From the NCBI GenBank assembly GCA_048938105.1, contig JBHLMN010000012.1, forward strand, positions 64,001 through 128,000: DNA of 64,000 bases. The letters run 5' to 3'. Made by a program: the position numbers and the translations under genes. The stretch's first letter is position 1. Each line of letters starts with the position of its first letter. Shown piece by piece: positions 3,416 to 28,240 of the stretch. The notes under the pieces are model-generated. The model made no database searches, was not told where the DNA came from, and saw only the letters and a program-made list of their open reading frames with translations. Source of the DNA: Promethearchaeota archaeon. GTDB taxonomy: Archaea; Asgardarchaeota; Heimdallarchaeia; Hodarchaeales; Hodarchaeaceae.

Positions 3416-3682
3416 ATAGAAATAAGTATGTTCAGGCAAGACCAGAGATGCTAATCCTGCCTTTTACGGTCTTAAATTTAAGGAAACATAACAACTAAGA
3501 AAGGTTTTCATCAATTTCCTAAGTAGAAAATGTAATTTTCTTCCTCTATTGCACTTAAATGGACATCACGGATGAATATAATAGGAATAATTAAGGACTA
3601 GATATGGATTAAATCTCAAAAAAAGGAAAATGAAAACCCAGATGACTCTGGAAATATATCTAGATCTAGCTAATCTGAAATT

Positions 3683-6271: not shown

Positions 6272-6353
6272 TGAATTACCGATTGAGTAGGATTAAAAAG
6301 TGTAATTTAAGATAGATACACTAAAATAGTACTATTAAGAAAATGTTAAGAAA

Positions 6354-7355: not shown

Positions 7356-7360
7356 TCATT

Positions 7361-10941: not shown

Positions 10942-11337
10942 TTAATCAAGATTGCTTAATGTCCTAATATAAGGAGTAATAGCCTGTTCAAATTTATTAA
11001 GATTTTCTCCTAGATTTAATAATTCTGTGAAAATCAAGCTTAAGGCGTTTCTAAATTTCTTTTCTTTTTTAGAAAGTAAAGGTTTGTCCATAATATTGAA
11101 GTAAAGATTTAGAAATTCTTTTAAGATTTCATTATATACTACCTCGCCTTCAAAAGATTTGTACTGAGTTTTATATTCATTTATCAAAATTTCAAGTATC
11201 TTTAGCTGATTCTGTTGCTTCCTTTCCCGACGTGATTTCCAAATCTCATAAAGAACCCCAATAAGAGGGGGAATAGTCCCTAAATTAATAACTGAAGTAC
11301 TTATCCAAAAAATGTCTTGACTCATCAAAATCACCAA
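10942..11337 (-). CDS. Hypothetical protein with N-terminal TM anchor
   Basis: Hydrophobic N-terminal segment followed by basic KSRRERK and a helical domain. Confidence 0.55.
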   Translation of the reverse strand: MVILMSQDIFWISTSVINLGTIPPLIGVLYEIWKSRRERKQQNQLKILEILINEYKTQYKSFEGEVVYNEILKEFLNLYFNIMDKPLLSKKEKKFRNALSLIFTELLNLGENLNKFEQAITPYIRTLSNLD

Positions 11338-11466
11338 AAAGAGTATTTAATTATAGTGAATCTATCATTTCTTGTACATATTTATGAATATTGATTAATA
11401 ATTCCTTTTGAGCTAAGCAAATTTTTTAAATTATAAACAAGCAAAAAAAGTTATATTTGACTGGGG

Positions 11467-13593
11467 ATGTTTTTAATGACAATAAAGATTGGAGACCTAA
11501 ATAGTGAGATTTTAGAGCGAGTTGAAAATTACTTCAAGAATTTAAGAGGTTGGGGGTCCTTATTTGTTAAAGATCCTACTGATGCTGAATCAATTGAAGA
11601 GATAATTTCTGAATATGAAGAATTAGAAAAGAAATTTGTGAATTTCTACGGGGATGCTTTGAAAAATCTTAATGGTTTCAGTAATATGTTGTTATGGGGA
11701 AGAAGGGGAACTGGAAAGTCCACATATCTCACAAAAGCGTTTTTTCAACAAATTTACCAATTTAAAGGAAGAAAAAGAAATGTCCCCATTTTTATAGACT
11801 GTAATTTGTTGTTTAAAGAGGATTTAGAGGAGAATCTTCTGAATATCTCATATTTTTATGCAGGTTTAAAATCTCAGATTGTAAAATCATTATTGTTGTT
11901 CCAAAAAATCCTTCATCATTTTAATAAAAAGAATTTAGTAAGTTTAGATGAAGATGAATTAAGTTGTATCAAATTCAAAGGACCAGAGTTTGAAACTGAA
12001 GATTTCAGTGAAGATTTGGCTAGGAATAAGTATGATTTATTTCTTGAGAAATATTCTCAACAGCTCTATAACAACATTCAGAAAGAACAACCAATGAATT
12101 TTGATAGTATCCTGACCTTTCTTGTTGAACTCAAAAGACAATGGCAAGTACATGGTTTTATTTTCTATATAGATGAAGTTTCTGAATTCTTTATAGCTAA
12201 AGGGCATTTTAAAGAAAGTGTTCGAAATTATTTTTTAGATTTCATATCTAGGGCCATTTTGAATTACAGCAGTTTGATGGTTTTCAAGCTAGTTTTATAT
12301 CAAGAGGCTGATTTTGAGTACCTTCAACGAGGTGCTCCAAAAGATGTTAGAGTTCATCGTAAATACTTTAATTCTTTTGCTGCTCTGGATTTATTTGATG
12401 AAAACAAATATTTTGGAAGAAAAATTGGAATAAAAGGAACCTCGATAAAACGACAATACGAATTGGATTTAAACAAACATATTGATGCCATCTTTAATAA
12501 GGCTTCAAATGATTGGAATCGAATCATTGCTGACTTTGAAAAGAAAGAAATTCAAAACAAAATTTATAAGTATCTTCGTGAAAGTACAGGAGGAACGATT
12601 AGAGAATTAGGTTTCATAATCTCAGAGGCAATAAAACAGTCTAAAGAAAATAAGACCAGACCGATTAATGTTACCATTCCTAATTTAAGAGCTGCTATTA
12701 TTGCTCACTATAAAAAAATCAATACTTCACTATTGACAAAAGAAATTAAATTAATGGAGGAAGTTATAAGCACGAAAAAGAAAGATAGAGACCCTAATAT
12801 ACTTTATTTTACTGATCGAATTAATAGCTCTGATTATAAGCCTCTAGATAAGAATAATGTTGAAAAAGTCTTTAAACATAATTTTTTAGCAGAATTAGAG
12901 CAAAATTTCATTATAAATATTGTTTCAATGTTAAAAACCAATGGAAATACCGAAACAATTTTTGTTTTTCATCCTGGATATGCTTTTCAAAATACTTGGC
13001 CTGATAAAGATATTGAGTTTAATAGTAACTATTTAAGGCATAATTCAATGCATATTGCACTAAATTTAAGGTATAAAAACTCATTTTCAAAGTATTTCAA
13101 GAATTATATTGAAGAAATAGAAGTGGAAGAACAATCCATAAAGAAAAAATATCTAAATATTATAAAAGAGGGTCTTCTAAAAAAAGGGGAAAGTTTAACC
13201 TCAATTGAGAGATTTATCTTTCCTAGCTTGAAGAACCAATCAATTTATGGTCTAAAACTCTTTTGTGAAGAAGTTGGTATTGCATTAACTACAGAGTCTG
13301 ATGAAGAAGTAGCAGTAGAAGTTCCAGATCTTCCGATCGAATACGATGATGAAGAGAAATGGTTCGATGCATATTTAGAACGTGCGAGAAAAAAATTAAT
13401 CAGAACTCAATATTTAAAAGATTATCTAAAAATATTAGAAATAATAAATAATAAAGAAAAGGCTACTTTCGAGGATATTGGCGATGAACTTAATATCAGT
13501 TATCCTGTAAGCCGGAGAAAATACTTTATAAATTTTTTAAAGAAGAAATCGCTGATAAAAGAAATTGATGGAATTTTTCAAATAAAACGTTAA
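11467..13593 (+). CDS. STAND/ORC-CDC6-like P-loop ATPase with C-terminal winged HTH
   Basis: LLWGRRGTGKS (Walker A), FIFYIDE (Walker B), STGGTIRE (sensor-2-like); C-terminal ATFEDIGDELNIS...FLKKKSLI HTH. Confidence 0.75.
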   Translation: MFLMTIKIGDLNSEILERVENYFKNLRGWGSLFVKDPTDAESIEEIISEYEELEKKFVNFYGDALKNLNGFSNMLLWGRRGTGKSTYLTKAFFQQIYQFKGRKRNVPIFIDCNLLFKEDLEENLLNISYFYAGLKSQIVKSLLLFQKILHHFNKKNLVSLDEDELSCIKFKGPEFETEDFSEDLARNKYDLFLEKYSQQLYNNIQKEQPMNFDSILTFLVELKRQWQVHGFIFYIDEVSEFFIAKGHFKESVRNYFLDFISRAILNYSSLMVFKLVLYQEADFEYLQRGAPKDVRVHRKYFNSFAALDLFDENKYFGRKIGIKGTSIKRQYELDLNKHIDAIFNKASNDWNRIIADFEKKEIQNKIYKYLRESTGGTIRELGFIISEAIKQSKENKTRPINVTIPNLRAAIIAHYKKINTSLLTKEIKLMEEVISTKKKDRDPNILYFTDRINSSDYKPLDKNNVEKVFKHNFLAELEQNFIINIVSMLKTNGNTETIFVFHPGYAFQNTWPDKDIEFNSNYLRHNSMHIALNLRYKNSFSKYFKNYIEEIEVEEQSIKKKYLNIIKEGLLKKGESLTSIERFIFPSLKNQSIYGLKLFCEEVGIALTTESDEEVAVEVPDLPIEYDDEEKWFDAYLERARKKLIRTQYLKDYLKILEIINNKEKATFEDIGDELNISYPVSRRKYFINFLKKKSLIKEIDGIFQIKR

Positions 13594-13640
13594 AAGAACC
13601 ATTTCTACGAATTAACCAAAGCCCCTAGGAAAAAAGCAGA

Positions 13641-14141
13641 TTGGTTGGTAAGAGAATAGCAAGTGATTATTATGTCCATCGAAAATATGTAAACAAAATT
13701 CAAAAAGAATTATTTATATTATATGAATTGGCCAAACTTGAATTATCACCTGAACAAGAAAAGAGCTGGAATATTTTAAAAGTTAACAAGAGGGAAAAGA
13801 GAGTTTCATTTTTGGAGTATCCAAAGTTTGATATTGATGCCCATCCAGAGTTAAAACACAGCATAAGCGTTAATCTATCAAAGTCTCCTCCAATTATACG
13901 GATAACACGAGGACGAGGGTATATTCTTCACAGGAAGGAGTTATTTATTGATAAGGACTACCCATTATACGCTAAATTTCATGAACTCACAAAAAAAGAG
14001 GAGGAATTCGGTCTTCTAGACGCCAAAATTGTTTTTAAAGGAAAAAAATTAGGGACTTTAATGGGGAGAAAGAAAATTTGGGAAGAATGGTTATCGTACA
14101 ACAATATAAAAATCTTAGATCATGAAATTGAAGTAGAATGA
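13641..14141 (+). CDS. Stand-alone non-catalytic domain of the DNA phosphorothioation-associated putative methyltransferase family (TIGR04096-like)
   Basis: VGK...YVH, VSFLEYPKFDIDAHPEL, ILHRKELF...YPLYAKFHELTKKEEEFGLLD, G...W...L..H match the terminal domain of that family as I recall it; no SAM motif. Confidence 0.75.
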   Translation: MVGKRIASDYYVHRKYVNKIQKELFILYELAKLELSPEQEKSWNILKVNKREKRVSFLEYPKFDIDAHPELKHSISVNLSKSPPIIRITRGRGYILHRKELFIDKDYPLYAKFHELTKKEEEFGLLDAKIVFKGKKLGTLMGRKKIWEEWLSYNNIKILDHEIEVE

Positions 14142-14174
14142 GATTTAGAAGGTGCCTAAAGCTTGACCTGATGG

Positions 14175-15023
14175 ATGGTGAAAAAATTAACAGATTTTCC
14201 TTGGAAGAAAGTCCTTGAAACTGCTGAAATCGATTTAATATCTTGGGAAAGAGTTAGTCCATTAATTAAACATGAAGTGTTTAAGGAATTAAATTTACAA
14301 CCAAAGAATTACATCCCAATATACTCTGAACAGGAACGACAACGAAAATTAGGAACAACTCAAAATATTTGGCCTTTTCGCACAGGAAAAGGTGAATGTG
14401 TTCTTATTCGGGGGAATATGAGTGTCAAGAATACTTACCAAAGTCCAAATACAAAACTAATATTACTCGAAGAAACATGCATTCCAAAATCATGTTCTTT
14501 GGGAAATTCTAAAACGGAGAGAGAATATTTAGCTCAAGGATTTAATTCTCGGGTATTTCATCAACTTTTAATAAATGAGAGTAAGAAAGAAGTATTTCTT
14601 GGAAGCGCTGGCAAACTATACTTGAATGCAAAAGTTCAGTATCATTCCGTTCCTATTAAGTTGAAGAATGTTCAATTTGAACTTGATTGGACTGTGGAAA
14701 CAAGAAATGAAGTTTTACATTTTGAGGCGAAATACTCACCTAAAAAACCAACACCTGAATATATTTTATTTCAAGTTTTTTATCCGACGGTTTATTTAAG
14801 CGAAAAGGTAAAGAATAAAACTATACGACCGTTTTTCCTTGATATTATAAAGGGCCATGGTTTTGTAGATTATCATTTCATGGAGATAGGATACGATGAT
14901 ACATTGAATTTATCTTCTTATAAAGTAGTACCAATCCAAAATACAACAATTCGTGTTAGCTTATCAGACCAACGGTTTCCAAACTTGATGAGTTATATAA
15001 ATACAAATCGTACAAGAAAATAA
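14175..15023 (+). CDS. PD-(D/E)XK restriction-endonuclease-like protein (DUF6997-like)
   Basis: QFELDWTVE...LHFEAK...FQVFYP resembles the QxExD...EAK...QLYYP pattern. Confidence 0.6.
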   Translation: MVKKLTDFPWKKVLETAEIDLISWERVSPLIKHEVFKELNLQPKNYIPIYSEQERQRKLGTTQNIWPFRTGKGECVLIRGNMSVKNTYQSPNTKLILLEETCIPKSCSLGNSKTEREYLAQGFNSRVFHQLLINESKKEVFLGSAGKLYLNAKVQYHSVPIKLKNVQFELDWTVETRNEVLHFEAKYSPKKPTPEYILFQVFYPTVYLSEKVKNKTIRPFFLDIIKGHGFVDYHFMEIGYDDTLNLSSYKVVPIQNTTIRVSLSDQRFPNLMSYINTNRTRK

Positions 15024-15341
15024 ATTTCCAAAGGGAAGATAAATAGTTATGTGGCCTTACAACAGTAATTTGTACTACAGTTGAGAATGGGTTTCTAAGT
15101 TATTTTAATTTTCCTTTAAGAAAAATTAATGAGTTTAAAATGAAAATAGATCATCAGATATTAAGTATTATAAGATTTCATAAAAATAAGCAAAAATAAC
15201 TTTATTATGAACATGATCAGCTACCTTTCAAATCGATTATAAATAAGATAGGTAAAATCTAGGTTAGAGATATGATGGAGAGTTTTTTAGCTTGAATGAA
15301 AAAATTTACAAATACTTACATTCCTCAGGGATTCACTTACT

Positions 15342-15791
15342 TATGAAGATCCTGGGATACATGAAAAACTTGAATAGTCATTTCAGTCTATATTGAGACT
15401 CAATAGATTATTTCGGGAAATTGAAAGAAAATAAAAAAAACCACTGTGATCATTTATGGATTCCATTTTTGTATTAATCAATTTTATAGAAAACGAAAAC
15501 AGAAAAAAAGAATTACTATATCTCGTTGGAGCCCACAAAGAGGCAATAATAGAATTAGATGTAAAATTAACTGGTATGCAGAAAGAAAGAAGCAAAGATT
15601 TCAAACCCTGGTTAATTGTAAAAAATAACACTCGGGGAATCTATTTAATAAATAAAATAATGAAGAAATTTGATCCCTGGGTTTCACTCTGGAAACAGAC
15701 TCCAATTTATCCTCATCAAATCCCAAAAGAAATAGTGGAGGTTGAAAGATGGGATCAAAACCTAGAAGAAAAGATGTTAAAAATAATGTAG
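15342..15791 (+). pseudogene. Probably 5'-decayed hypothetical gene (residual 111-aa ORF 15456-15791)
   Basis: The same frame reads protein-like upstream (YEDPGIHEKLE*SFQSILRLNRLFREIERK*KKPL*SF) with stops at 15375, 15432 and 15447. Confidence 0.4.
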
Positions 15792-15910
15792 ACAAGCAAA
15801 TTGAGAAACTTATCCACAAAGATGTTTTTAAAATTCTAAAACAAGGAACCAAAGCTTCAGAAAAAGAAGCAGAAAACAAAATAGATAACTTCATAAGAAG
15901 CTTGGATTAG
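15749..15910 (+). CDS. Small 53-aa protein immediately upstream of SMC ATPase (not in ORF track)
   Basis: GGAGGT SD-like motif 6 nt before ATG; MGSKPRRKDVKNNVDKQIEKLIHKDVFKILKQGTKASEKEAENKIDNFIRSLD*; stop 9 nt before the SMC start. Confidence 0.55.
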   Translation: MGSKPRRKDVKNNVDKQIEKLIHKDVFKILKQGTKASEKEAENKIDNFIRSLD

Positions 15911-15919
15911 GGAATCTTT

Positions 15920-17812
15920 ATGGATGACTGGGAGTTAACTGTTGAAAATATCGGGTGCTTTGTTGGAAAACATTCTTTTCTTTTTAAACAAGGTACAAAT
16001 GTGGTTATTGGGCCTAATGCTATAGGGAAGACGAGTTTGTTGCATGCATTCCAATTATTAATACCTCTGGATTCAAACATCATAGATACGAACATTTTGA
16101 ATTCTTCGTCAATGATTGGACATGTTCGCTTACAAAATGGTAATGATTGTTTTTTTATTGATATAGGGAGACGATCAGACGGTACTGTATGTGTTACCAG
16201 AAAAAAGAAGTTATTAACTGCGAACGAATTTGCTAAACAAGTTATTTTCTTAACAGAAAGCCACGAAATAATGGAAGCGGTGATAAAAGGAGATTTTAGT
16301 ATTTTAAAGGACTGGTTTGTGAGAATAACAGATTTAAACCTTTACCAAAAGGCTTATGGAGCTTGTATGAGGTTAGATTCTCGTTATAGAGACCAAAAAG
16401 ATCAGGAATCAAAACAAATACTAAAAGAGAAACATCGCTTACGCCAAGAACAGAAAAATATGCTTTCTGAAATTCGCAAAAAAAAATCAGTATTCAAAAA
16501 ATATCAGCTTGCATCAATTGCAAAAGAATTTGATTCTGAGCTTGTAACTAAATTTAGAAAGATTTCCTCCGAATTAGAAAGAATAAATAATGAATTGAAC
16601 AAATTAAAATTGGATAAAAATGTCTTAAAGACTCAACTCCCAAAGCTAACAAAGGATAAAGAAAATTTTCAATTAAAACTTTCAAAAATAGGAGAGAATT
16701 TTGAATCTGCAAAAGATCATGTTCAATATCACAATAATGAACTACAAAAGATTGACAGTGAAATTAAGCAGAAAAAATCTGTCCTTAATAAGATAAATAG
16801 AGAAATTTCACGATGTGATATTCTTATTTCGAATTTTATAAACACATTGGATGAAAATATAATCGAATGTTTGCACTGTGGTTCTGTGATATCGCAAATA
16901 CAATTAACCCAAAAACTAAGAACTATAGAAGATGAAAAAATTCATTTTGCAGAACAAAAATTAGAATTAACCAATTCAATATCTGAATTCCTAAATAATA
17001 GAAAAAAACATGAAGAACAACTTCAGGATATTAAAGTAGGACTTCCCAAAGAAGAAAAGGAACTTAGAAAGAAAATCGAAAGCACAAAAAACAAAATAAA
17101 TCGGCAAAAAAAGAAATTAACCGAACTCCAGAAAAGAATAGCGAGTAAAAATGAAGCATTAGACGAAATACAACTTATCTTTGAAAGTCTTCAGGGTCAA
17201 GTGCTGGAAAAATCCGAAAAGAAAAGCGAAATAGAACGCATGGAAAACGAATTACAAGGCGAACTCAAACATATGGAGAAGAGCTTAAGTAGGATCCAAA
17301 GTGACTTAACAAGAACAGAAACCCAGCTTTTAATGCTTAAAACATTTGATATAAAAAGAAAAAATCTGAAAAAAGTAATATATTTTGTCCAAAAAGGCAT
17401 TAAATCAATCCAAGAAAATATCTTGGACAAGATTAACTATCATCTTAACCAAATAATCACTGAATTGGATATACCATTTTTATCATCAATTAAGCTCGAT
17501 GATGATTTCAATCTGAAAATTGTTAGGAAAACAGGGGTACTTGGAGAATTTAGAGAACTTTCTGGTCTTGAAAAAAGATTAATTGCGATTCTTGTTGGTT
17601 TTTCAATAAAAAATGCACTCCTACAAGACTTTCCATTCTTTATTATTGATGAGACATTATATTCTGCAGATGATGAAAGTTTCGAGCAGATTATAAATTA
17701 TATTGGGCAAAATATAGATCTTTTGATTGTAACCCGATTAGGTACAAATCCAGATATTCAAAAGGGCGTATTGAATCAACAGAATATAGTTTATATGGAG
17801 AATGTGGCATGA
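15920..17812 (+). CDS. Rad50/SMC-like ABC ATPase with CxxC zinc hook (Sph/DndD-like)
   Basis: VENIG, GPNAIGKTS (Walker A), long coiled coils with central CLHCG, LSGLE signature, FFIIDE (Walker B). Confidence 0.85.
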   Translation: MDDWELTVENIGCFVGKHSFLFKQGTNVVIGPNAIGKTSLLHAFQLLIPLDSNIIDTNILNSSSMIGHVRLQNGNDCFFIDIGRRSDGTVCVTRKKKLLTANEFAKQVIFLTESHEIMEAVIKGDFSILKDWFVRITDLNLYQKAYGACMRLDSRYRDQKDQESKQILKEKHRLRQEQKNMLSEIRKKKSVFKKYQLASIAKEFDSELVTKFRKISSELERINNELNKLKLDKNVLKTQLPKLTKDKENFQLKLSKIGENFESAKDHVQYHNNELQKIDSEIKQKKSVLNKINREISRCDILISNFINTLDENIIECLHCGSVISQIQLTQKLRTIEDEKIHFAEQKLELTNSISEFLNNRKKHEEQLQDIKVGLPKEEKELRKKIESTKNKINRQKKKLTELQKRIASKNEALDEIQLIFESLQGQVLEKSEKKSEIERMENELQGELKHMEKSLSRIQSDLTRTETQLLMLKTFDIKRKNLKKVIYFVQKGIKSIQENILDKINYHLNQIITELDIPFLSSIKLDDDFNLKIVRKTGVLGEFRELSGLEKRLIAILVGFSIKNALLQDFPFFIIDETLYSADDESFEQIINYIGQNIDLLIVTRLGTNPDIQKGVLNQQNIVYMENVA

Positions 17813-19677
17813 GTCCTTTCAAATGGTGTTTAAATTGTCATATTCCACTCATTCAAAGTAAATGTGGGAATTCAAGACCTATACCCCATAAAGTAGTAGA
17901 TTTCATTTCTCGAGTGAAACCTGTTGGTAAAAAAGAGTATCAAATGTATAAAGCCCTTTTTGTTAACAATTCTGATACTGAAAGTGAATATACGATAGAG
18001 GATGAATCTAAGAAGGATAGAGCGAAACGTTTTCCCAAGATTCTTTATCGAAGTAGAAATCTACTATATTCTGAAATGTCAGAAGGAACACCTCATTTTA
18101 AGATATTATTACAGAGAGAAAATGATATTGATAATTGGGGATTAACTAATCGGAATATTATACTTCATGATAATAAAAATTACTTTAAAAGGTCCGAATA
18201 CAAAAAAATTAATGAATACTTCTGGACCGATCCTGAATATCGGAAGAAATTAATTGAAGGAAACAAAGAACGACTTGTGAAACTAGAGGAAAAGGCGCTT
18301 AAATTTATTCGTTGGGTTTACAAAAAAAAGAAAGAATCTAAGGTTTTTGTTTCTTTTAGCGGAGGTAAAGACAGCGCGGTAACTGCATATCTAACAAATA
18401 AAGCATTGTACAAAGAATTAGGTAGTGTTCCATTACTTTTTTCAAATACTGATATTGAATACCAAGAAACTGTGGACTATGTAAGAAAAAGAGATCTTGG
18501 TGAGGTTATAGAAGTAAAATCAAAGAATAAATTTCTTGATTTATGTGAAAAATTAGGTCCTCCAAGTCGCACTATGCGATGGTGTTGTTCAACACAAAAA
18601 GCATCACCAGTTAATCAATATTACTCGACAATAAAGAGTGAAATTTTAAGTTTTGACGGTATAAGAAGAGAAGAATCAAATTTAAGAGCTGAATATCCTC
18701 GACACCATCAGAATACGAAGCTACAACGCCAATATAGTGCTTATCCTATTTTAGATTGGTCTGAAATAGAGGTTTGGTTATTTACGCTTTGGCGTAATAT
18801 CCCTCTAAATCCCCTATATGATGAAGGTTTTGCTAGAATCGGATGTTGGGCTTGTCCAAATAACGGTCTATTTGATACATTTCTTTTCGAAAAAATTAAA
18901 CCCGAAATGGCTGATTATTGGTTTAAGAAGCTACGAACTTTCTCAGAGTCAATTTCTAATGAATACGATCACAAATATAAACATGATTGGATTTATCAAG
19001 GAAAATGGAAAGGACGGCGTGTAAAATATCATAATGAGTTAATTGGGGAAATTTCCCAACAAGATTCAAGCTTTGAGAACTTTGATATTGTTGATCCTGC
19101 AGAGGCAATATCAAAATATGATGAATTTCATGATGAAAATTCATTTGAGAATGAATCTAAGCCATGCAGCCAGACCAGTGTAATGGTTGTTTCATTGGAT
19201 CGCCCCTTAAAAGAAGACTCATTCGAATTTCTTAAAATTTTTGGGGATTCTAAACGTATTCTAATTGGAAATCAAACTTTGGTCAAGATAGAAGGACAAA
19301 AATATTCAATTCAGTATGTTGAAAATTCTAACAAAATTAAATATAAAATCCTAGAAAAAGAGAAGAATGAAAGAAACATATTACGTAATAGATTGATTCG
19401 TCAAATAAATAAATCTTTCAATTGTATTAAATGTGCCTCATGTGTTGGTCTTTGTCCTAAAGGAGCGATTAGTGTTATAGTTAACAGATACCAAGTAGAT
19501 TCAAGCAAATGCATTAATTGTTTAAAATGCACTTCGAGCAATCTGCTGAGTATGGGTTGTGTAGCCCTTCATTATAAACCTGATAGACTTTTAGTTGATC
19601 GAAATGTCACGAAACCGTCTTTAAAAGTGAGACATGATTCAGAAATGGTTACTGAATCTCAATTACTTACTACATAG
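17809..19677 (+). CDS. PAPS/APS-reductase-family PP-loop protein with C-terminal 4Fe-4S ferredoxin domain (DndC/SspD-like sulfur-insertion enzyme candidate)
   Basis: N-terminal WCLNC...C, SFSGGKDS, RWCC, GIRREES, RIGCWACP, CIKCASCVGLCP, CINCLKC; ATGA overlap with the SMC stop. Confidence 0.85.
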   Translation: MSPFKWCLNCHIPLIQSKCGNSRPIPHKVVDFISRVKPVGKKEYQMYKALFVNNSDTESEYTIEDESKKDRAKRFPKILYRSRNLLYSEMSEGTPHFKILLQRENDIDNWGLTNRNIILHDNKNYFKRSEYKKINEYFWTDPEYRKKLIEGNKERLVKLEEKALKFIRWVYKKKKESKVFVSFSGGKDSAVTAYLTNKALYKELGSVPLLFSNTDIEYQETVDYVRKRDLGEVIEVKSKNKFLDLCEKLGPPSRTMRWCCSTQKASPVNQYYSTIKSEILSFDGIRREESNLRAEYPRHHQNTKLQRQYSAYPILDWSEIEVWLFTLWRNIPLNPLYDEGFARIGCWACPNNGLFDTFLFEKIKPEMADYWFKKLRTFSESISNEYDHKYKHDWIYQGKWKGRRVKYHNELIGEISQQDSSFENFDIVDPAEAISKYDEFHDENSFENESKPCSQTSVMVVSLDRPLKEDSFEFLKIFGDSKRILIGNQTLVKIEGQKYSIQYVENSNKIKYKILEKEKNERNILRNRLIRQINKSFNCIKCASCVGLCPKGAISVIVNRYQVDSSKCINCLKCTSSNLLSMGCVALHYKPDRLLVDRNVTKPSLKVRHDSEMVTESQLLTT

Positions 19678-19685
19678 ATTTAAGT

Positions 19686-21884
19686 GTGAATCATATGCCT
19701 TTAGCTTTAAACATTGGTTATACTCCAGCACAGATAGATTTTTTTGACAGAAAATTCAATAAAATCAAAGAATATATTGATTTCGTAGATATTAAGTCCT
19801 CATTCCTAGTACAAAGAAACTCTATTGCCTCTATTGTACGAGCTTTAAGTTCCAAAAGTATTCGAGCATTTCTAGAAAGTGGTGGATTTTTTAATTTAAA
19901 TTTTGATGTGCCTAGAGATAGTAATTATATACCTGTTAATTCCACAAAATCCAAGAATAATTTCTTAGACTTTATAACTGAATTCAGTGACACACCTGCT
20001 TATTTCCAAGATAGTTGTAATAATCTAATCCTCCCAGTGATTTTAGATGGTGATAGTTCATTAAATCATCAGTACAAAAATTCTCTTTCGAATTTTATAT
20101 TAAATAATCTAAATAAAATTGATCGAATCTTCGATAAGCTCCTGATTAGATATCATTTTATAAAAAACAATTCAGAAATTGAATATTATATTAACGAGAT
20201 TGAAAGATACGAGGGGGATTATAAAAATAATATTAAGGAAAGTTTTTCTTTGTTTCTCAATATACCAGAGTGGCATCAGAAATTAGGGCAAAAAAAAACT
20301 CTACAATTATTGAGAAAACTTCGAGACACTGGTAGGAAAGTAGAAGTTTACCAAATTGCCGACTACCAGATCATAGATAATCAGGTACATTCTAATATAA
20401 CCATTGGTGAGGGGAGAATATCTTGGAGACCTTTCCTCAGTTACTTTAAAAATTCAAACATATTACTAGCAACAAAAGACGGCATTTCGTCAGTAAAAAA
20501 AAGTATGGCGCATTTAGGGGAAATTTCGATTAACAAGAAAGATAGAATTGATGGGAATTCCGTTGTTACGGGATTCTTTTTTTCTAGGGATAAAAAATCA
20601 TTCTTTCAATCGTCACCTGGTACAAAAATGGCATTAAAGTATATTAAGGACAATAAAATTAATGTAAACTCGATTCTAGATTTAGGTTGTGGAAATGGGA
20701 GGAATTCTTTTTATCTATCAAAAAATATAGATGCGAAAGCACATCTAATAGATATTGACAGAGATTTGTTAAACTATGTTAAGCTTAAATTCAAAACTTT
20801 TAATGTTAAAACTCCAGAGATAGAGGTAATAGATCTGGAAAATTTCGACCTATCACTTTTTAATACTAAATATGATATTACACTGCTTAGTTATGTGCTT
20901 CAGAATATATTTCCTGCTAATTATTTCAAATTGATGGATTTCTGTAGGATTATAACAAGAAAACTAATGATTTTCGAGATCTATGTCAATTTAAATGTTT
21001 ATCCAGAAGGAATGGTTACAAAACGAGGAGAGACTTTTTGGTATGGCTTTTCAAGCGATGAAGTCTTTAAATTATTTGAATCCTTTTTCGACGTAATAGG
21101 ATGGGATGTGAAAAAAGGAAAAGCGAATCCTTTAATGATTTCAATTGTTGGTAAACCGAGGGATACTGTAACAAATGGGGAAAGTATTTTAAGGCGGTAT
21201 AATAACATACAAACAGTTGACTATAGCTCAATAAGAAAGATTTATCCCAAGAAACAGGTTTCAACTAGAAAAAAAGTAAAAACAATTAGTTCTACAAAAA
21301 GAAAAGAGAGAATGATTGATAAAACTAACACAGATCATTGGAGGATACTATCCTCTCATTTATTGTCTACTGGATTGAGTAAAACTCAAATCAGTGTTTT
21401 GGAGTCAAAACTAGAAGAACTTGATTCATCATATAAACTAAAAGCTCCAGAAAATTTTGGTGCCTTACTTTTTTTAGTTGCTAGATTAAATCGCATTCCG
21501 ATTCATCTACAAGAGATTGTCAAGATTCTTGATGTTCGTAGGAAAGATATTCATCGTACAATGAAAGAAATTCAATATAGACATAATATCGCACGTAATC
21601 TTCCAAGTTTAGAAGCTTTTTTTGAACGATATTTTACAATTTTAAATCTAAATGAAATTTACGAAAGATCTCCTTCAGAGATCATTGAAGAAATAAAGAA
21701 TAATTATAACTGTAACCTTCTGGGATCCTTGCCTCACATATCAGCTCTAGCTATTGCAATACATCTTTTACGGTCTTCTGATAAAAGATCTAACCCTTCT
21801 CAGCTTGCTAGAAAAGTGTATATTTCCCCCTCTTCTCTTAAAAACAAACTTAGATTATTAGAAGGTATTCAGCTGGTTCAGTAA
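19686..21884 (+). CDS. Fusion: degenerate TIM-barrel + class I SAM methyltransferase + TFIIB/TFB cyclin-fold core
   Basis: ITIGEGRISW (AP-endonuclease-2-like TIM C-terminus); ILDLGCGNG, LIDID, YDITLLSYVL; C-terminal two cyclin repeats (GALLFLVARLNRIPIHLQEI...; GSLPHISALAI...SQLARKVYISPSSLKNK). Confidence 0.7.
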   Translation: MNHMPLALNIGYTPAQIDFFDRKFNKIKEYIDFVDIKSSFLVQRNSIASIVRALSSKSIRAFLESGGFFNLNFDVPRDSNYIPVNSTKSKNNFLDFITEFSDTPAYFQDSCNNLILPVILDGDSSLNHQYKNSLSNFILNNLNKIDRIFDKLLIRYHFIKNNSEIEYYINEIERYEGDYKNNIKESFSLFLNIPEWHQKLGQKKTLQLLRKLRDTGRKVEVYQIADYQIIDNQVHSNITIGEGRISWRPFLSYFKNSNILLATKDGISSVKKSMAHLGEISINKKDRIDGNSVVTGFFFSRDKKSFFQSSPGTKMALKYIKDNKINVNSILDLGCGNGRNSFYLSKNIDAKAHLIDIDRDLLNYVKLKFKTFNVKTPEIEVIDLENFDLSLFNTKYDITLLSYVLQNIFPANYFKLMDFCRIITRKLMIFEIYVNLNVYPEGMVTKRGETFWYGFSSDEVFKLFESFFDVIGWDVKKGKANPLMISIVGKPRDTVTNGESILRRYNNIQTVDYSSIRKIYPKKQVSTRKKVKTISSTKRKERMIDKTNTDHWRILSSHLLSTGLSKTQISVLESKLEELDSSYKLKAPENFGALLFLVARLNRIPIHLQEIVKILDVRRKDIHRTMKEIQYRHNIARNLPSLEAFFERYFTILNLNEIYERSPSEIIEEIKNNYNCNLLGSLPHISALAIAIHLLRSSDKRSNPSQLARKVYISPSSLKNKLRLLEGIQLVQ

Positions 21885-21889
21885 CAATT

Positions 21890-23125
21890 GTGGTAAATAT
21901 GGATCCATATGAATTTAGAAATTCTATTCCTCTTCTACGAAACAATCCAGATATCGTCTATTTAGATTCAGCTACAACTACATTAATTCCTGATACTGTA
22001 ATACAACGAATGAAAGAATTTTATGAAGAAATTGGGGTCATTCCAAATCGTGGAGCTTATGATTTAGTACTTCAATCAAATAAGACTTTAAATAAGGTAC
22101 GAAATAGTGTCTCGAATTTTTTTAATGTTGATTTTAATAGAATCGCCTTCACAACGAGTACTTCACATGGTTCTGCAACAGCGATCGCTGTTACAAACCT
22201 TACAAAGAAAGATAGAGTTTTATTTGCATCAAATTTACACAATTCGTCATTTTTAAATTGGTTTAGATTTGTACAAAAGAACTCAATAAATTTTGACTTC
22301 ATTAAATTGAATAAAGATGGTCAAGTCTTAATAGATGATTTAGAAGATAAAATTTCTCTGAAGATTCCCGGTAGAACAATAGTAGTTTTAGATCATGCAC
22401 CAATGGGTTTTGGTACGTTATTAAATTTAAATGTTGCATCAGAGGTAATACATAACACAAAAGATTCATATCTTTTTCTTGATGCTACTAGAACAGCTGG
22501 CTTAGTAGATTTAGATATATCAAGAGAAAATATTGATTATCTTGTCTGTCAAAGCCATGTGGGATTCTTTGCTCCTCCTGGAACAGGGATACTTATCGTT
22601 CCAGAGGAAGTTAATGGTGAACCATGTTATATAGGTTCAGGATCTGTAATTGACACTTCTAAAGAGTACTATCATTTATCCCCCTATCCTAATAGTGTTG
22701 AAATTGATAGTGTTAATATTGGAGGTTTAGTTGGATTAGAAGCTGGTATAAAATTGCTTAATGAAATTGGGATAAATGAAATCAGAAATCATTGTATGAA
22801 ATTAATCGAAATCTTCTGTAAAAATGTAGAAATGAGTGATGATATTCTTTTATTTGGATCATCTGATCCTTTAAGTCGGTCAAATTTACTTAGCATTAAA
22901 TTTAAAAATATAAGCTGTCATGACCTTGCCTTTTATGTTCATGAATTGGGAAAAATTTGTGTTCGATCTGGAAGTCTTTGTAGTCATCTACTTATTAGAG
23001 AAATTAATTCTAATATTAATAATGGATTTACACAATTCTCATTTAACTATTATAATACGGAGTTGGATTTAAAAAAAGCAATTGAAATTCTCAACTCAAT
23101 AAATATGAAAAAAAAAGAATTATAA
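21890..23125 (+). CDS. SufS/DndA-like cysteine desulfurase homolog, PLP-lysine substituted
   Basis: VYLDSATTT, AFT.STS, LDATR, PPGTGIL, VRSGSLCSH (Cys364). QSHVG stands in place of SGHK. Confidence 0.8.
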   Translation: MVNMDPYEFRNSIPLLRNNPDIVYLDSATTTLIPDTVIQRMKEFYEEIGVIPNRGAYDLVLQSNKTLNKVRNSVSNFFNVDFNRIAFTTSTSHGSATAIAVTNLTKKDRVLFASNLHNSSFLNWFRFVQKNSINFDFIKLNKDGQVLIDDLEDKISLKIPGRTIVVLDHAPMGFGTLLNLNVASEVIHNTKDSYLFLDATRTAGLVDLDISRENIDYLVCQSHVGFFAPPGTGILIVPEEVNGEPCYIGSGSVIDTSKEYYHLSPYPNSVEIDSVNIGGLVGLEAGIKLLNEIGINEIRNHCMKLIEIFCKNVEMSDDILLFGSSDPLSRSNLLSIKFKNISCHDLAFYVHELGKICVRSGSLCSHLLIREINSNINNGFTQFSFNYYNTELDLKKAIEILNSINMKKKEL

Positions 23126-23136
23126 TGTGAAACTCT

Positions 23137-25335
23137 TCATAATTTCATAAGGAGATTGTTAATATCAAATAATTCTTTCATTAATTCATGCTTGTTTTCT
23201 GCATAATCTGCGAAGAAAGTAATTCTTTGATTTTCAATTCTAATTATGTTTTTTGCTAGTCTTGGATGTCTTTCCATTTGATTTGAATTTGGTAGGACTA
23301 TTATATCATAGATTACAACTGGTTCTTCCTTTTTTTTGTTTTTTCTTAGTATTCTACCAGCTCTTTGAATATGTTCTAATGCGGATCCTGAGCTTGCCAT
23401 AAAGATTGCTTTTTCCAAACATGGTATGTCTACGCCTTGGTCTAGGCATTTCATTGCAATTAGTGTATTTATATCTTTATTTGCTAAATTGTTAATATAG
23501 ATTTGCCTTTCTTTGTTATCCATGTTACCATCAATCAGATTAAAACTAATTTTAAACTGTTTTTGTGAATACAATTCCATAATAACGCTTCTTACATCTC
23601 GTGTAATATGCTCTTTATCTCTACAATATATTACACATTTCTCGAACTCTTTCTTATTGATTAAGTCAAGTATGATCGATTTTAAAACTTTTCTTTTGTG
23701 CTTACATTTTTTTATTATATCTGCTCTTTGATTGAGTAATATGGTTCTATAATCCTCTCTTGCTATGCCCCTAATTTTACTTATTTGTGTTGATAAATCT
23801 TCATATTGTTTGATATCATTATCGTCAAAATAACATTTGAAAATTTTGTACTCAAATTTACAGACAACGCCAAGCTCTTGAGCATCTTTCAGCGTTAGTT
23901 CATACAGATCCCTATTTTCATTAAGAAACCAATCAAGTATTTTTAGAGTTCCTTCCTCATCAAAATGTCTTTGAGGAGTAGCACTAAGACCAATTTTATA
24001 GTCGGGGTTAAAATTTTCCATTAAAAATATTCCTGTAGGTGTTCCAAGGCTATGTGCTTCGTCGGCAATAAATAAAACCCTTGATCTCTTGCTTAATCCT
24101 TTTTTATTAATAACCTCTCTATTTAAAATCTCGGGTTTAAGCGATTTGTATGTTCCAACTATATAGCAGTGATCTTGCTCTAATAGCAGTATTTTATCTA
24201 TGTGATTCCGTAGTTCTTTCTTCCAAGTAGGGTTCTCATGGTAGCATTTGATAACATATTTCGAATATCTATTTAATTCTTTATACCATTGATCAACTAA
24301 ATATCTATCAGGAACCCCAATAATAGTTATAAGTTTTAATCCTTCTTTCTTAAGTTTTAAATATAAATTATAACTAGCAAAAATCGATGTTTTAGTTTTT
24401 CCTGTTCCTGTTGCCATTGCAAGAAATCCAATGAACTTATTCTTATCCAAGTGATCCAATGCATCTCTTTGAGGTTCCCATGGTTTATCTTTCTCGATGT
24501 TGGGTATTAATAACCCTTCAGTGAAATTCCAAGTAGAATTCTTGCTAAATTCCTCAAACAATTTGTAAAAAGAAGTGGTTTTTATGTGTTCATTAAAAAC
24601 GTGATCAAAATGAGAAAAATTTATTTTATTTAAATCTTTAGGTTTGTATTTTGAGATAATATAATCTTTTAATCCTTTGGGAAAAGAAGAAACTTTAAGA
24701 CATGAATCTTTGTTATCCCAATATAATTGAAATTTCTCAAAATCCAATTGTGCATATTTTTTTGTATCATCCCAACTTCTAAACGTTTTTATTTCTTCAC
24801 GATTTTGTGACCAAGCCATATAAGTCATGTTTGAAGAACCTGAAAACGAAATATAATCTTGACCATCACTCAAAATCCCAATCTTTTCGTGTAAAATCCT
24901 CTCGAATAATAATTCCGATATTTTTTCTTCTGTACTAAATACTGGAATTGCAAATTTGATTTCTATTCTATTATAGTACAATAACCAGGCTAATAATTTA
25001 TAATGTTCATCTAGATCAGACCTTAAATTTATTTGATTAAGAAAATCCTCCTTGAGGATCTCTTCAAAATTCTCTGCTAACTCATTTCTTGCCATTAAAA
25101 GTAAATTTAATTCCTGATTTCTTGGAACTCCAATGATGATTTTTATTTTTCCATTATTTTTTTGGATAAAATTATACAATCCGTAAAATAATGGAATAAA
25201 AATCTTTGCTGAAAAATATCCAGTAATATACCAAAATTTTTTTGATTCATTGAGTACAGGTACTAAAAATTCATCAAAAAGGTTATCCCAACCCGTTGTA
25301 TAACTAATTTTGAGTTCCAAGTCCCTTAAAGGCAA
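23137..25335 (-). CDS. pbeA: PLD nuclease + SF2 DEAD/DEAH helicase (PbeA / dnd-system restriction enzyme type)
   Basis: TGYFS, LHEKIGILSD (HxKxxxxD), SGSSN, MATGTGKT, DEAH, LSATP, QGVDIP, QRAGR. Confidence 0.75.
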   Translation of the reverse strand: MPLRDLELKISYTTGWDNLFDEFLVPVLNESKKFWYITGYFSAKIFIPLFYGLYNFIQKNNGKIKIIIGVPRNQELNLLLMARNELAENFEEILKEDFLNQINLRSDLDEHYKLLAWLLYYNRIEIKFAIPVFSTEEKISELLFERILHEKIGILSDGQDYISFSGSSNMTYMAWSQNREEIKTFRSWDDTKKYAQLDFEKFQLYWDNKDSCLKVSSFPKGLKDYIISKYKPKDLNKINFSHFDHVFNEHIKTTSFYKLFEEFSKNSTWNFTEGLLIPNIEKDKPWEPQRDALDHLDKNKFIGFLAMATGTGKTKTSIFASYNLYLKLKKEGLKLITIIGVPDRYLVDQWYKELNRYSKYVIKCYHENPTWKKELRNHIDKILLLEQDHCYIVGTYKSLKPEILNREVINKKGLSKRSRVLFIADEAHSLGTPTGIFLMENFNPDYKIGLSATPQRHFDEEGTLKILDWFLNENRDLYELTLKDAQELGVVCKFEYKIFKCYFDDNDIKQYEDLSTQISKIRGIAREDYRTILLNQRADIIKKCKHKRKVLKSIILDLINKKEFEKCVIYCRDKEHITRDVRSVIMELYSQKQFKISFNLIDGNMDNKERQIYINNLANKDINTLIAMKCLDQGVDIPCLEKAIFMASSGSALEHIQRAGRILRKNKKKEEPVVIYDIIVLPNSNQMERHPRLAKNIIRIENQRITFFADYAENKHELMKELFDINNLLMKL

Positions 25336-25370
25336 TTTAATTCTTCCTATTCAGAGAATAAGGGCATTGA

Positions 25371-25898
25371 TTATTGTTTCTCTTTAATATCATCTTTTAT
25401 TTCGTCTTCCCACTCAATAAGGTTAAAATCTTCGAGTAACTCCGAGTCTGGTGCATCAGCAAGACATATTAATTTAAAATTCCTTTCTCGTGGTAAATTC
25501 CATCCTCCCTTGAAATATTCTTCTGCAATTCGTGAGCATTCACTAAGATCCAACAAAATTTTGTGAATATAATCTCGTTTTTCTTCATTTCTCCCAATTT
25601 CATCCAACATATGACCATAAGCAATTGTTTTTAATATAAAGCCCACTTCTTCACGATCTGATAGTGATGGTACGTTAACGGAATCAGTTTTTTCACGTTT
25701 ACTCCTAGGTAATTCTTTAGGTGATCTACCATTTGCGAATGAGCGAGTAACGCCAATTATAAATCCATCTATTAACCTATTTTTGAAGGAACATTGTTGA
25801 TATCTCTTTTTTTTATCTTTAATCTCTTTTAATATGTCATTAGCCTCAATTTCTAAGTATATATTCCTGTATAAAGTCTGTTTTTCCTTTTTTGACAT
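25371..25898 (-). CDS. dnd-associated protein 4 / PbeD-like
   Basis: C-terminal RIAEEYFKGG resembles the EEYANGG motif of dnd-associated protein 4; lies directly downstream of the CxC ATPase. Confidence 0.55.
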   Translation of the reverse strand: MSKKEKQTLYRNIYLEIEANDILKEIKDKKKRYQQCSFKNRLIDGFIIGVTRSFANGRSPKELPRSKREKTDSVNVPSLSDREEVGFILKTIAYGHMLDEIGRNEEKRDYIHKILLDLSECSRIAEEYFKGGWNLPRERNFKLICLADAPDSELLEDFNLIEWEDEIKDDIKEKQ

Positions 25899-25899
25899 G

Positions 25900-27990
25900 C
25901 TATTTCCTCACTAATTTAGCATTATCATTTTTTGGATTTTCTATTTCATATTTTATTCCAATTTTTTGGTCAAAAATTGGTCTTAAATCTTCTATTTCAT
26001 TAATATCAGGTTTAGTGGCAAGTAAATTATTTTCCTTAGCAAAGAAAATAATTTGATTCCCTGAATATATTCCTGGTAATTTTTCGACAACTTGTTTTCG
26101 AGTTTCTGAGTCGATATTCCCAAAAGGAGAGTCAAAAATTAAAGGTAATTCGACATCTAGTACTTTTGCCAATGAAGATATAAAGGACATTCCTACAATA
26201 TTAGTTTGACCAGTCGATGTATTCATAATTTTTGAACCAGAACTAAAGATGGCCTCAAAAATCCATCCTTTTCCAATATCTTTTATGTTTAATGACAACC
26301 AATTTTCTGGATCTCTTACTAAAGTTTTTAATGTCTCTAAAGTTTCTTCCTCACACTTTTTTCGAATAACTTCAGCTACATTCTCTTCAATTTCAGAAAT
26401 TATTTTTAAATAAAATTCAGTTAAAGATCTACATTTTTGATAACATTCAGACTTGTCAGTAGATTTATCTGTTTCAGATACCATTTTATTATATTGTTTT
26501 TCCGCGTTTAGCTTATCATTTTTGATGTTATCAATTTCCATAAGGTAGTGCAGTTTATCTTGTTCAATTGATCCGATTAATTGATCTCCCAAAGAAATTT
26601 GATTTTCTAAATCTATAATTTCTTGATACCATTCTTCTGATTGTTCTTCAGGTGTTAATTTCGTTTTTAGTACATCAATTTTTGTTTTTATTTCAATAAC
26701 CTCTTGATTTATTTTTAGAAATTCCTTTTGATTTTCTAAAATGCTTTGTTTCCCAGTCTTAAGCAATTTTAACTTTGCTCCTAATTCTGCTTCAAATTTA
26801 ATTGCAGTTTCCCCTAAAATACTATTATCAGCCTTTTTTAGTATTTTATTTATTCTTGCCTTCATTTCAGTATTCCAAGGAGTTCCACAAACACAAGATC
26901 CATGTCTTTCTAATATTGTTTGAAGTACCTCTGATGTAAGTTTTCCAGGAATAATGTCTTTTTCTCTTTTCTCCTTAATATCCTTTAAAATCCTTTTCAT
27001 TGTTTGTTCTAAATATAGAATCGGTAAAAATTGCATCAATAACCTTTCTCGCCTCTCGATGATCTGATCCCTCCTTATTGCTTTCTCCTCTAATTTTTGA
27101 ATCAAATTATTATAGTCTCTTACGAAATCAATCTTACCTTGAACATTTTGTCTTCTGTTCCTTAATTCAGCTAATTCTGATCTTCTAATTTCTAGTTCAG
27201 TTATCTTCTCTGCTACTTTTGTTTCCAATTCTTTTTTCTTTTTTCCAAAATTTTCAATTTCCTCTTTCTTATCCTTTAATTTCTTGCCTTTGGCAGTCAC
27301 AGCTAAGTATTTATTTTGGAAGTAATTACTTGCTCTATCAAGATAAACTTGCAAAGTTTTTATTTTTGGATAATCTGAAATATCCAATGAATAATTTTTC
27401 AAATTCCCTACATTCTCAATAGATAATAAATGATTTAATCCTTCACCAAAAATGAACACGAAATCCCTCATTGATCTAGGAAAATATTTGTTAATCAAAT
27501 TTAAATATATTTCATCTGGATTTGGTACTTTTGATGCATTTTTATAGATTAACTTTCTTTCTGATTTCTTCAATTTTCCATTAGCAAACTGTATCCCTTT
27601 AGCGGTTTTCTTAAATTTTATATATCGATGTAATTCTAAAAAATTTAAGTTTCCAGAACGATCAATTTGTTCAAGTTCAATGCATCCCCCAACTTCAAAA
27701 CTGTTACCTACCTCTATTTTTCTTTTTACTACAGAGTTGGCTGCTTCTTTAATATTATGATCAGTAAAAAATTTGAGTTCCTTTAGCATTTCTTTCTCAT
27801 CAAATGATGGGAATAAAATCCAGTACATTAATTGAAATATCGAACTCTTACCAGAACCTGTATCACCAAGAAACAAAGTTACATTTTTTTCTTTATCAAC
27901 GGAAAATAACATTTCGTGTTCTCCAACAAATGGACCGAAATTAAGAATTCTCATTTTTTTGAAGGTTAAGCGAGGATTTTGAACCAACAT
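25900..27990 (-). CDS. pbeC: DndD/PbeC-like SMC-type ABC ATPase with CxC hook
   Basis: NFGPF, GDTGSGKSS, coiled coils with CVCG, STGQ signature, LIFDSPFGNID. Confidence 0.7.
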   Translation of the reverse strand: MLVQNPRLTFKKMRILNFGPFVGEHEMLFSVDKEKNVTLFLGDTGSGKSSIFQLMYWILFPSFDEKEMLKELKFFTDHNIKEAANSVVKRKIEVGNSFEVGGCIELEQIDRSGNLNFLELHRYIKFKKTAKGIQFANGKLKKSERKLIYKNASKVPNPDEIYLNLINKYFPRSMRDFVFIFGEGLNHLLSIENVGNLKNYSLDISDYPKIKTLQVYLDRASNYFQNKYLAVTAKGKKLKDKKEEIENFGKKKKELETKVAEKITELEIRRSELAELRNRRQNVQGKIDFVRDYNNLIQKLEEKAIRRDQIIERRERLLMQFLPILYLEQTMKRILKDIKEKREKDIIPGKLTSEVLQTILERHGSCVCGTPWNTEMKARINKILKKADNSILGETAIKFEAELGAKLKLLKTGKQSILENQKEFLKINQEVIEIKTKIDVLKTKLTPEEQSEEWYQEIIDLENQISLGDQLIGSIEQDKLHYLMEIDNIKNDKLNAEKQYNKMVSETDKSTDKSECYQKCRSLTEFYLKIISEIEENVAEVIRKKCEEETLETLKTLVRDPENWLSLNIKDIGKGWIFEAIFSSGSKIMNTSTGQTNIVGMSFISSLAKVLDVELPLIFDSPFGNIDSETRKQVVEKLPGIYSGNQIIFFAKENNLLATKPDINEIEDLRPIFDQKIGIKYEIENPKNDNAKLVRK

Positions 27991-27994
27991 AGCG

Positions 27995-28240
27995 TTAGCT
28001 TCCTACTCCGTGTTTGATTTTACTCATCTTTTCTATTATTTGGTTATACATATGATCGATTTTTTGTTTTTTTGCTTTATTTTCCTCATAAGGCCATTCT
28101 TTTTCAAAATAAATAAATTCAAATAGCTCATTGAAGAAATTAAATGGATCACCTATTTCTTTTTTAACATCTTCAGGAATTACTTTCTCCCAAGTTGATT
28201 TATACTCATTTAATAGAGTTTTAAAATTAATTTTCTTCAT
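27995..28240 (-). CDS. Small protein upstream of CxC ATPase (PbeB-like by position)
   Basis: 81-aa ORF preceded by GGGGAAG, ending 4 nt before the ATPase start. Confidence 0.5.
   Translation of the reverse strand: MKKINFKTLLNEYKSTWEKVIPEDVKKEIGDPFNFFNELFEFIYFEKEWPYEENKAKKQKIDHMYNQIIEKMSKIKHGVGS

Follow-up and report, generated by a model that had tools for sequence, protein, structure and literature searches.

Could a putative DNA sulfur-modification enzyme that stands without the usual Dnd or Ssp partners still write a backbone mark, and what would take their place? The question is raised by a locus at positions 11467 to 28240 of a window, 64,000 nucleotides (nt) long, from Promethearchaeota archaeon (GCA_048938105.1, contig JBHLMN010000012.1, positions 64,001-128,000, forward strand), in which a plus-strand arm coding for an enzyme of the phosphoadenosine phosphosulfate (PAPS) reductase fold converges on a minus-strand Pbe operon. 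Coordinates are window positions, and all calls are computational (PADLOC, hidden Markov models [HMMs], tblastn, trees, structure models, and atlas comparison); L numbers denote compared loci and G numbers genomes, the host being G000 with its contigs numbered C. We put at about one in two the probability that the plus-strand arm is a BrxP/SspD-type phosphorothioate (PT) writer whose DNA-scanning partner is an ASRP-family ATPase with two small subunits, ASRP filling the role that DndDE or SspBC/BrxC has elsewhere. Taken over all readings, the chance that the arm makes PT is about two in three.

Genomic setting of the locus

The locus consists of intact genes within a defense island of a Hodarchaeota-like genome. 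The host genome is 99% complete, and the nearest named relative of the PAPS reductase-like enzyme (61% identity) is carried on a Candidatus Hodarchaeota contig. At 30.1% GC versus 35.1%, the locus forms the end of a low-GC island some 65 kb long (contig C63, ∼27-93 kb). Open frames are present for every gene listed by a first-pass annotation of this DNA, and both the ATGA overlap between the ATPase and enzyme genes (17809-17812) and the convergent 11-nt gap between the arms (23126-23136) are exact. Sequencing run X1, possibly made from the source sample, has contigs that match positions 11000-27693 with zero differing letters. The same gene order recurs in independent assemblies, the co-occurrence that had been set beforehand as a test, and the gene set is therefore more than chance. 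No tRNA that might mark an integration site is on the contig, and a scan for sigma-70 promoters and terminators, which is unsuited to archaea, gave chance-level results.

The plus-strand arm

The candidate writer has four core genes, listed here with the ratio of nonsynonymous to synonymous substitution rates (dN/dS) where it supports the call:

15456-15791, plus strand: 111-amino-acid (aa) protein, predicted ferredoxin-like fold, constant ASRP partner, core of the writer arm
15749-15910, plus strand: 53-aa protein, constant ASRP partner by conserved position and sequence, overlapping the 111-aa gene by 43 nt
15920-17812, plus strand: zinc-hook coiled-coil ABC ATPase of the ASRP family (NF045487, motifs, tree, dN/dS 0.20), proposed DNA-scanning ATPase of the writer
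17809-19677, plus strand: PP-loop Fe-S enzyme of the PAPS reductase fold, BrxP/SspD-like, without PUA domain (PADLOC, fold, clade, dN/dS 0.18)

The PP-loop enzyme matches BrxP in PADLOC with an E value of 9e-68, ahead of SspD (8e-12) and DndC (6e-9), and scores 33 bits to the DndC model TIGR03183 against a cut-off of 290, which sets it apart from DndC. Its structure model has a PAPS reductase core, and the SGGKDS PP-loop, RWCC, and GCWACP motifs are present together with a ferredoxin tail. The zinc finger, PP-loop, CC, CxxC, and tail are common to SspD-type and housekeeping relatives; the tail, previously singled out as distinctive, is in 79 of 80 SspD-type relatives and already described for BrxP (BREX literature), and we do not regard it as a novelty. 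The enzyme has no PUA match, against one at 1e-14 in the housekeeping paralog that the host encodes on C18. Although the PADLOC match and domain layout are those of the BrxP of bacteriophage exclusion (BREX) type 4, and the motifs those of SspD, the ten ASRP-linked enzymes form one clade (approximate likelihood ratio test [SH-aLRT] 99, quick tree search) that excludes the sampled SspD/BrxP sequences, among them the enzymes linked to SspB/C, as well as the housekeeping group. The clade is present in 3 of 399 genomes of the phylum; 193 of the 399 have some match to the enzyme, mostly housekeeping. Canonical-type SspD-SspB-SspC-SspA clusters also occur in Asgards (L229 and L230, in G045 and G054), with enzymes nested among bacterial ones.

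The ATPase, initially described as Rad50-type, is instead an ASRP, a family that includes the chromosome proteins ClsN and Sph and for which no consensus gene neighborhood was found (PMC9389158). The ASRP model NF045487 matches at 2e-72 (244.7 bits, below its cut-off of 300) versus 3e-8 for Rad50 and likewise 3e-8 for DndD, and with the tree these values lead us to reject both as its identity. Walker A, the CxxC hook (C317/C320), the signature, and Walker B are intact, its plasmid matches are annotated ASRPs, and the tree places it among ASRPs, apart from PbeC and Rad50, and groups it at 100/100 with the host's second copy (361.8 bits, above the cut-off). That second copy (G000:C31:116771-118621; L243) has synteny conserved with a same-genus genome and is probably core.

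Where the first-pass annotation saw one small open reading frame before the ATPase, there are two. The 111-aa protein is modeled at a predicted local distance difference test score (pLDDT) of 87; its ferredoxin-fold matches are weak, the best atlas row being DUF7855 at a template modeling (TM) score of 0.57, a family unconfirmed by HMM, and its gene has a dN/dS of 0.06 against L256. A DndE-like identity is rejected, since the fold is ferredoxin-like rather than ribbon-helix-helix. With an ASRP-like ATPase and this partner, the writer operon has no DndD-DndE pair.

ASRP is encoded directly upstream of the enzyme in the window and in L001, L017, L018, L019, L211, L212, L213, L249, and L256, as well as across a contig break in G018, and the 111-aa and ∼53-aa genes precede it in all loci with upstream sequence. 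Throughout the clade the ASRP and enzyme genes are translationally coupled, either overlapping at ATGA or separated by a few nt, the ASRP subclades mirror the enzyme subclades, and the linkage spans ATPases sharing just 25% identity, although kin loci are not independent. The module was probably recruited to the enzyme, as it also exists without the enzyme and those ASRPs form a separate tree group. These enzyme-less Asgard modules (L219-L225 and L228) lie behind genes for a 240-aa AAA ATPase and a 270- to 380-aa protein, sometimes with a TFIIB-repeat protein after them.

No SspB, SspC, BrxC, PglZ, or BrxL was found in the window or the 99%-complete host by HMMs, Asgard queries, and tblastn, which makes ASRP the sole operonic ATPase of the arm. 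DndCD likewise was not found in this genome. For DUF4007/SspB, our own SspB HMM and Asgard queries found nothing in the host, and the Pfam search lacked a positive control. The original proposal of a PT-like writer is supported, with SspB, SspC, DndB, and DndD lacking.

An NTPase partner is needed by all known PT writers except TdpC (PT literature), which makes PT without one (PMC12914056). It is accordingly conceivable, if improbable, that the enzyme makes PT alone in the manner of TdpC, with ASRP and its small partners serving as a Lamassu-like DNA sensor or regulator in the same operon. The top PADLOC match of ASRP is LmuB, though weak (5e-13), and there are sister enzymes without ASRP and ASRP modules without the enzyme. 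This alternative sits poorly with translational coupling and matching trees across the whole clade, and the writer arm has no Lamassu-type effector.

An exchangeable effector arm

The minus-strand arm is the known PbeABCD/CxC-ABC system:

23137-25335, minus strand: PbeA, HKD/phospholipase D (PLD) nuclease and superfamily 2 (SF2) helicase (PADLOC PbeA, 5e-150)
25371-25898, minus strand: PbeD/DndE cognate (dnd-associated protein 4), 175 aa (atlas features and fold)
25900-27990, minus strand: PbeC, CxC-clade ABC ATPase (PADLOC PbeC, 1e-41; CxC at 366)
27995-28240, minus strand: 81-aa protein, PbeB by size and position only, with no HMM match

PbeA has HKD-like, Walker A, DEAH, and motif VI sequences. 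PbeD has no direct HMM match; its atlas features score 0.93 to PF27807 clusters (the family being on 22 to 33% of members), with a TM score of 0.55 and TraY as the next structural row. PbeD is a DndE cognate, the whole operon constituting the CxC-ABC system (Rakesh et al., PMC10853773), so the claim that DndE is absent does not hold for the locus, although none is in the writer arm. The order is B-C-D-A, as opposed to A-B-C-D in L212, L217, and L249, loci in which the small gene has the position that the 81-aa gene has here; together with the PADLOC calls of PbeA and PbeC, this bears out the description of a facing, permuted Pbe operon. SspFGH was considered for the helicase/ATPase arm and rejected, as it is an FtsK-type module. 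In Haloterrigena, Pbe blocks viral DNA replication in a PT-dependent manner (PMC6459918).

A second complete Pbe/CxC operon is present in the host (G000:C14:182900-192300; L217:5983-15325) in canonical order, with flanks that look methylase-like by eye. In 54 of 159 loci, mostly from Bacillota (L022-L180, e.g., L029:10001-21296), SspD-SspB-SspC-SspA is followed by a PbeA-like helicase, a small gene, and a CxC ATPase; we found no description of this Ssp-Pbe pairing in the literature searched, where only two papers mention both systems.

The writer is paired with different effectors in close relatives. L256, a 90%-identical relative from a mangrove metagenome, has the same island from 10958 to the end of the writer, with 85 to 88% DNA identity, and faces BrxL-PglZ-BrxC instead of Pbe. 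The first 60 codons of sufS have a dS of 0.37, similar to other large writer genes (0.23 to 0.31), and later blocks are near or above 1; this jump and the drop in identity place the Pbe/BREX swap as a recombination within sufS, in either direction. L018, L245, and L248 likewise face BREX without PglX, an arrangement classed as type 4 (BREX literature). In a second subclade, G018 faces a PbeA 51% identical to that of the window and L213 has BREX, and the third has Pbe in L212 and L249 and, in L211, a locus flanked on both sides by BREX-like genes; each of the three subclades therefore has Pbe- and BREX-paired members. L019 has neither within 10 kb. BrxC, PglZ, and BrxL are present in L018, L213, L248, and L256, with a weak DUF4007/BrxA-like match in L213; BrxC was not found in G018 (89% complete). 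The strongest argument that the writer makes a DNA mark is that it is retained while two PT-reading effectors alternate. The swap also means that the 17-kb stretch is not the single fixed system that it was taken to be.

The exchange can be read differently, as an archaeal BREX type 4 remnant whose BrxABC-PglZ-BrxL half was overwritten by Pbe, so that the writer, needing BrxC, is silent here and Pbe works by itself or alongside methylation. BREX is the facing arm in each of the four close relatives that have downstream sequence (L018, L245, L248, and L256), BrxC is essential for PT in Bacteroides salyersiae (PMC12914056), and the break is inside sufS. We nevertheless judge this unlikely: the writer genes are all intact and under purifying selection (pairwise dN/dS 0.06 to 0.27), three further assemblies, belonging to two other subclades, have a writer with Pbe and without BrxC in the locus, and a PbeA related to that of the window faces the G018 writer.

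A desulfurase homolog without its lysine

Two further plus-strand genes complete the arm in the window and are accessory:

19686-21884, plus strand: 732-aa protein with a degenerate TIM barrel, a class I S-adenosylmethionine methyltransferase, and TFIIB-like repeats
21890-23125, plus strand: SufS-like pseudo-desulfurase, with the recombination break at about 22050-22100

The catalytic alteration reported for the SufS-like protein is confirmed, with V224 replacing the pyridoxal phosphate (PLP) lysine, R201 the glutamine, and Q382 the substrate arginine, and with Cys364 kept. These losses agree in all copies at such loci, whereas 94 of 94 SspA-type neighbors retain every residue, and the set that marks an active Ssp or Dnd desulfurase (PLP lysine, substrate arginine, and cysteine) is incomplete. 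From its residues, the protein would be unable to strip cysteine by the standard route and may act at most as a persulfide carrier or cluster ligand through Cys364. A parallel is Archaeoglobus fulgidus IscS, which has no lysine or desulfurase activity and is a proposed cluster ligand with sulfide as sulfur source (PMC8918507). In both proteins the PLP lysine is replaced and the active-site cysteine is kept; the SufS-like protein differs in its type II (SufS) scaffold, in the additional loss of the glutamine and arginine, and in its location in a defense locus. The host SufS on C2 has intact HK and Cys motifs. Most writer-clade loci have no SufS-like gene, which makes it accessory.

In trees, the SufS-like protein is not among SspA but nests in an Asgard lysine-less family adjoining SepRS or endonuclease V. 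The expectation that neither sulfur gene groups with housekeeping clades is borne out for the enzyme, which is not the housekeeping paralog, and not for the SufS-like gene, which descends from this family. Members at L246:1871-5466, L235, and L237-L241 adjoin SepRS (TIGR00470 above cut-off) and/or endonuclease V, and a role beside SepRS as sulfur carrier for tRNA-dependent cysteine synthesis is possible.

A methyltransferase-TFB fusion had been recognized in the 732-aa protein, and both domains are there, preceded by a third, N-terminal domain that was missed, the degenerate TIM barrel. The methyltransferase is of a small-molecule type, TehB/UbiE-like rather than a DNA methylase. This protein type is in 2 of 399 genomes of the phylum, and the L018 copy is without the TFIIB part. 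In the proteins at L018:3253-6207 and L215:11619-13911, the metal-binding motifs of the barrel, lost in the window copy, look intact.

A disabled desulfurase, the TehB/UbiE-like methyltransferase (also beside the enzyme in L215), and the many sulfur modifications made by PP-loop enzymes could together point to a mark that is not plain PT; examples would be thiolation of a base, further conversion of an adenylated intermediate, or PT that the methyltransferase has S-methylated. We find this doubtful, as most writers of the clade lack both the methylase and the SufS-like gene yet face the same PT-reading effectors. Finally, the idea that these are housekeeping genes for RNA thiolation, Fe-S supply, or chromosome organization merely lying beside a defense operon, which draws on the high similarity of the enzyme to PRK13795 housekeeping models, the SepRS- or EndoV-adjoining SufS family, and the inclusion of ClsN and Sph among ASRPs, is highly improbable and already largely refuted by trees and distribution, because the host has a separate housekeeping enzyme (with PUA), SufS, and ASRP, and the clade is sporadic, in a 30% versus 35% GC island, and nearly always touching defense genes.

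Proposed mechanism and its weighing

A PT writer with ASRP as its scanning partner is favored for several reasons. The best defense-library match of the enzyme is BrxP, a type proven to make PT (PMC12914056), its catalytic motifs are common to SspD-type enzymes, and it has no RNA-binding PUA domain. The distribution is sporadic, the ASRP-linked enzymes are a single clade with mirrored trees, both effector partners are known PT readers, no other operonic ATPase is present, and the writer genes are under purifying selection.

In the proposed sequence of events, the ASRP complex would first bind and scan DNA using ATP. The PP-loop enzyme would then adenylate a backbone phosphate and its Fe-S centre would deliver sulfur, a step suggested by homology to BrxP, SspD, and DndC and by TdpC, which reportedly forms an adenylated DNA intermediate. 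The sulfur source would be sulfide or the intact SufS of the host, perhaps via Cys364 of the SufS-like protein. The mark would be read by whichever effector is attached, PbeABCD here and PglX-less BREX in relatives, and Pbe would stop viral replication.

Several observations weigh against this reading. The three-gene ASRP module is also found apart from the enzyme, following an AAA gene and with ASRPs in their own tree group, and related enzymes occur without ASRP (L214, L215, and L216). In the trees, the enzyme clade lies outside the SspD/BrxP rows sampled, and it has no characterized member. The dN/dS values (0.06 to 0.27) are pairwise and so silent on selection after the swap, and the absence of BrxC for L212 and L249 refers to the locus. 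BREX-paired relatives have BrxC, the ATPase proven necessary in Bacteroides, so that in those loci an ATPase different from ASRP may serve the writer. Pbe operons also often stand alone or pair with methylases. Among the sister loci, L214 and L216 have no ASRP, BREX, or Pbe, and in each the enzyme is followed by two converging genes for 340- to 385-aa proteins with no PADLOC or Pfam match.

More tentatively, the ASRP-linked writer could represent a fifth backbone-sulfur route native to Asgards, in which an ASRP ring ATPase and two subunits replace DndDE/SspBC, no working desulfurase is used (sulfide or a pseudo-SufS persulfide serving instead), one mark licenses either Pbe or BREX, and in Hodarchaeota a TFB-tethered methylase may modify the mark further.

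Accessory and neighboring genes

Three genes lie upstream of the writer:

11467-13593, plus strand: P-loop ATPase with a C-terminal helix-turn-helix-like region, STAND-like by motif only, island neighbor
13641-14141, plus strand: stand-alone C-terminal domain of TIGR04096, a PT-associated methyltransferase family, accessory
14175-15023, plus strand: DUF6997 putative restriction-fold nuclease (PF22518, 1e-15), exchangeable accessory

The STAND-like ATPase is also in L017 and L256 (dN/dS 0.08); it was considered as a hidden BrxC/SspC and rejected at a profile probability of 1.7%, and it has no solved relative. The TIGR04096 domain matches profile positions 323-475 (4e-22) and is also in L001, L017, and L256; both genes are under purifying selection and accompany the Hodarchaeota subclade. 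The DUF6997 protein and the one that occupies this position in L256 share only 23% identity, indicating replacement between close relatives, and the family is also found beside a canonical Asgard Ssp cluster. These three genes and the methylase-TFB fusion are in or beside one subclade only, and their inclusion in the core is not sustained.

Also in the island (window positions 83-8176) are a fusion of a Cas4-like nuclease with HerA (1253-3415), a gene resembling a protease (3683-4387), and other defense-like genes; the Cas4-HerA gene also precedes the L017 locus. CCGG is strongly depleted genome-wide in G000 (observed/expected 0.33, the next lowest being 0.82).

Comparison with known systems

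Each part of the locus is from a known family, and the logic of a mark plus its reader is known. In the literature searched, with the ABC ATPase classification (Krishnan 2020), the Tdp paper, and survey supplements outside its scope, no account was found of a writer coupled to ASRP, of a lysine-less partner in such loci, or of the Pbe/BREX exchange. The main text of the BREX survey showed no ABC ATPase, Rad50, TFIIB, or Asgard partner of this kind, and the main Asgard defense survey does not mention PT, Dnd, Ssp, Pbe, or BREX. If the proposal is correct, it adds to Dnd, Ssp, Tdp, and BREX-4 an archaeal writer type not called as a system by current defense models, and gives ASRPs other than ClsN and Sph a first testable function, in the closest archaeal relatives of eukaryotes. 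The exchange of Pbe and BREX on one writer between 90%-identical relatives makes it testable whether a single mark serves both readers and whether writing requires BrxC. The proposal also has a bearing on sulfur delivery to DNA without a working desulfurase and on the many Pbe operons that lack dndCD.

On the features compared, the writer arm falls outside BREX-4, Ssp, and Dnd, and the effector arm is a member of Pbe/CxC; the claim that no existing model covers the locus therefore stands for the writer arm as a whole and fails for the minus-strand arm. With BREX type 4 (PMC12914056, PMC12839542), the locus shares a BrxP-like enzyme with an alpha+beta domain and ferredoxin tail and a desulfurase homolog, and its close relatives carry BrxC-PglZ-BrxL without PglX; the window differs in having no BrxC, PglZ, BrxL, or DUF4007, in the ASRP module ahead of the enzyme, and in a desulfurase without the catalytic lysine. 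Like the haloarchaeal DndCDEA-PbeABCD (PMC6459918) and CxC-ABC (PMC10853773) systems, it has a four-gene effector (HKD-SF2 helicase, small protein, CxC ATPase, and DndE cognate) adjoining a putative PT writer that brings along a coiled-coil ABC ATPase, but the effector genes converge on the writer in the order B-C-D-A, the enzyme is something other than DndC, ASRP stands in place of DndD, and the writer arm has no DndE. The enzyme of SspABCD has the same domain layout and motifs and is perhaps of the same type, but the window has no SspB or SspC, its enzyme is in a separate clade, and its desulfurase homolog is unrelated to the SspA clade. TdpABC, compared by description, also has a PP-loop Fe-S enzyme, with adenylation of DNA as its possible mode of action, and is set apart, again by description, in that no TdpAB-like genes were recognized in the window. 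ClsN and Sph (PMC9389158) share with the locus ASRP a length of ∼630 aa, a zinc hook, and terminal Walker motifs, but known members of the family act in chromosome organization or occur with RdfA, whereas here the ASRP is fixed to a modification enzyme.

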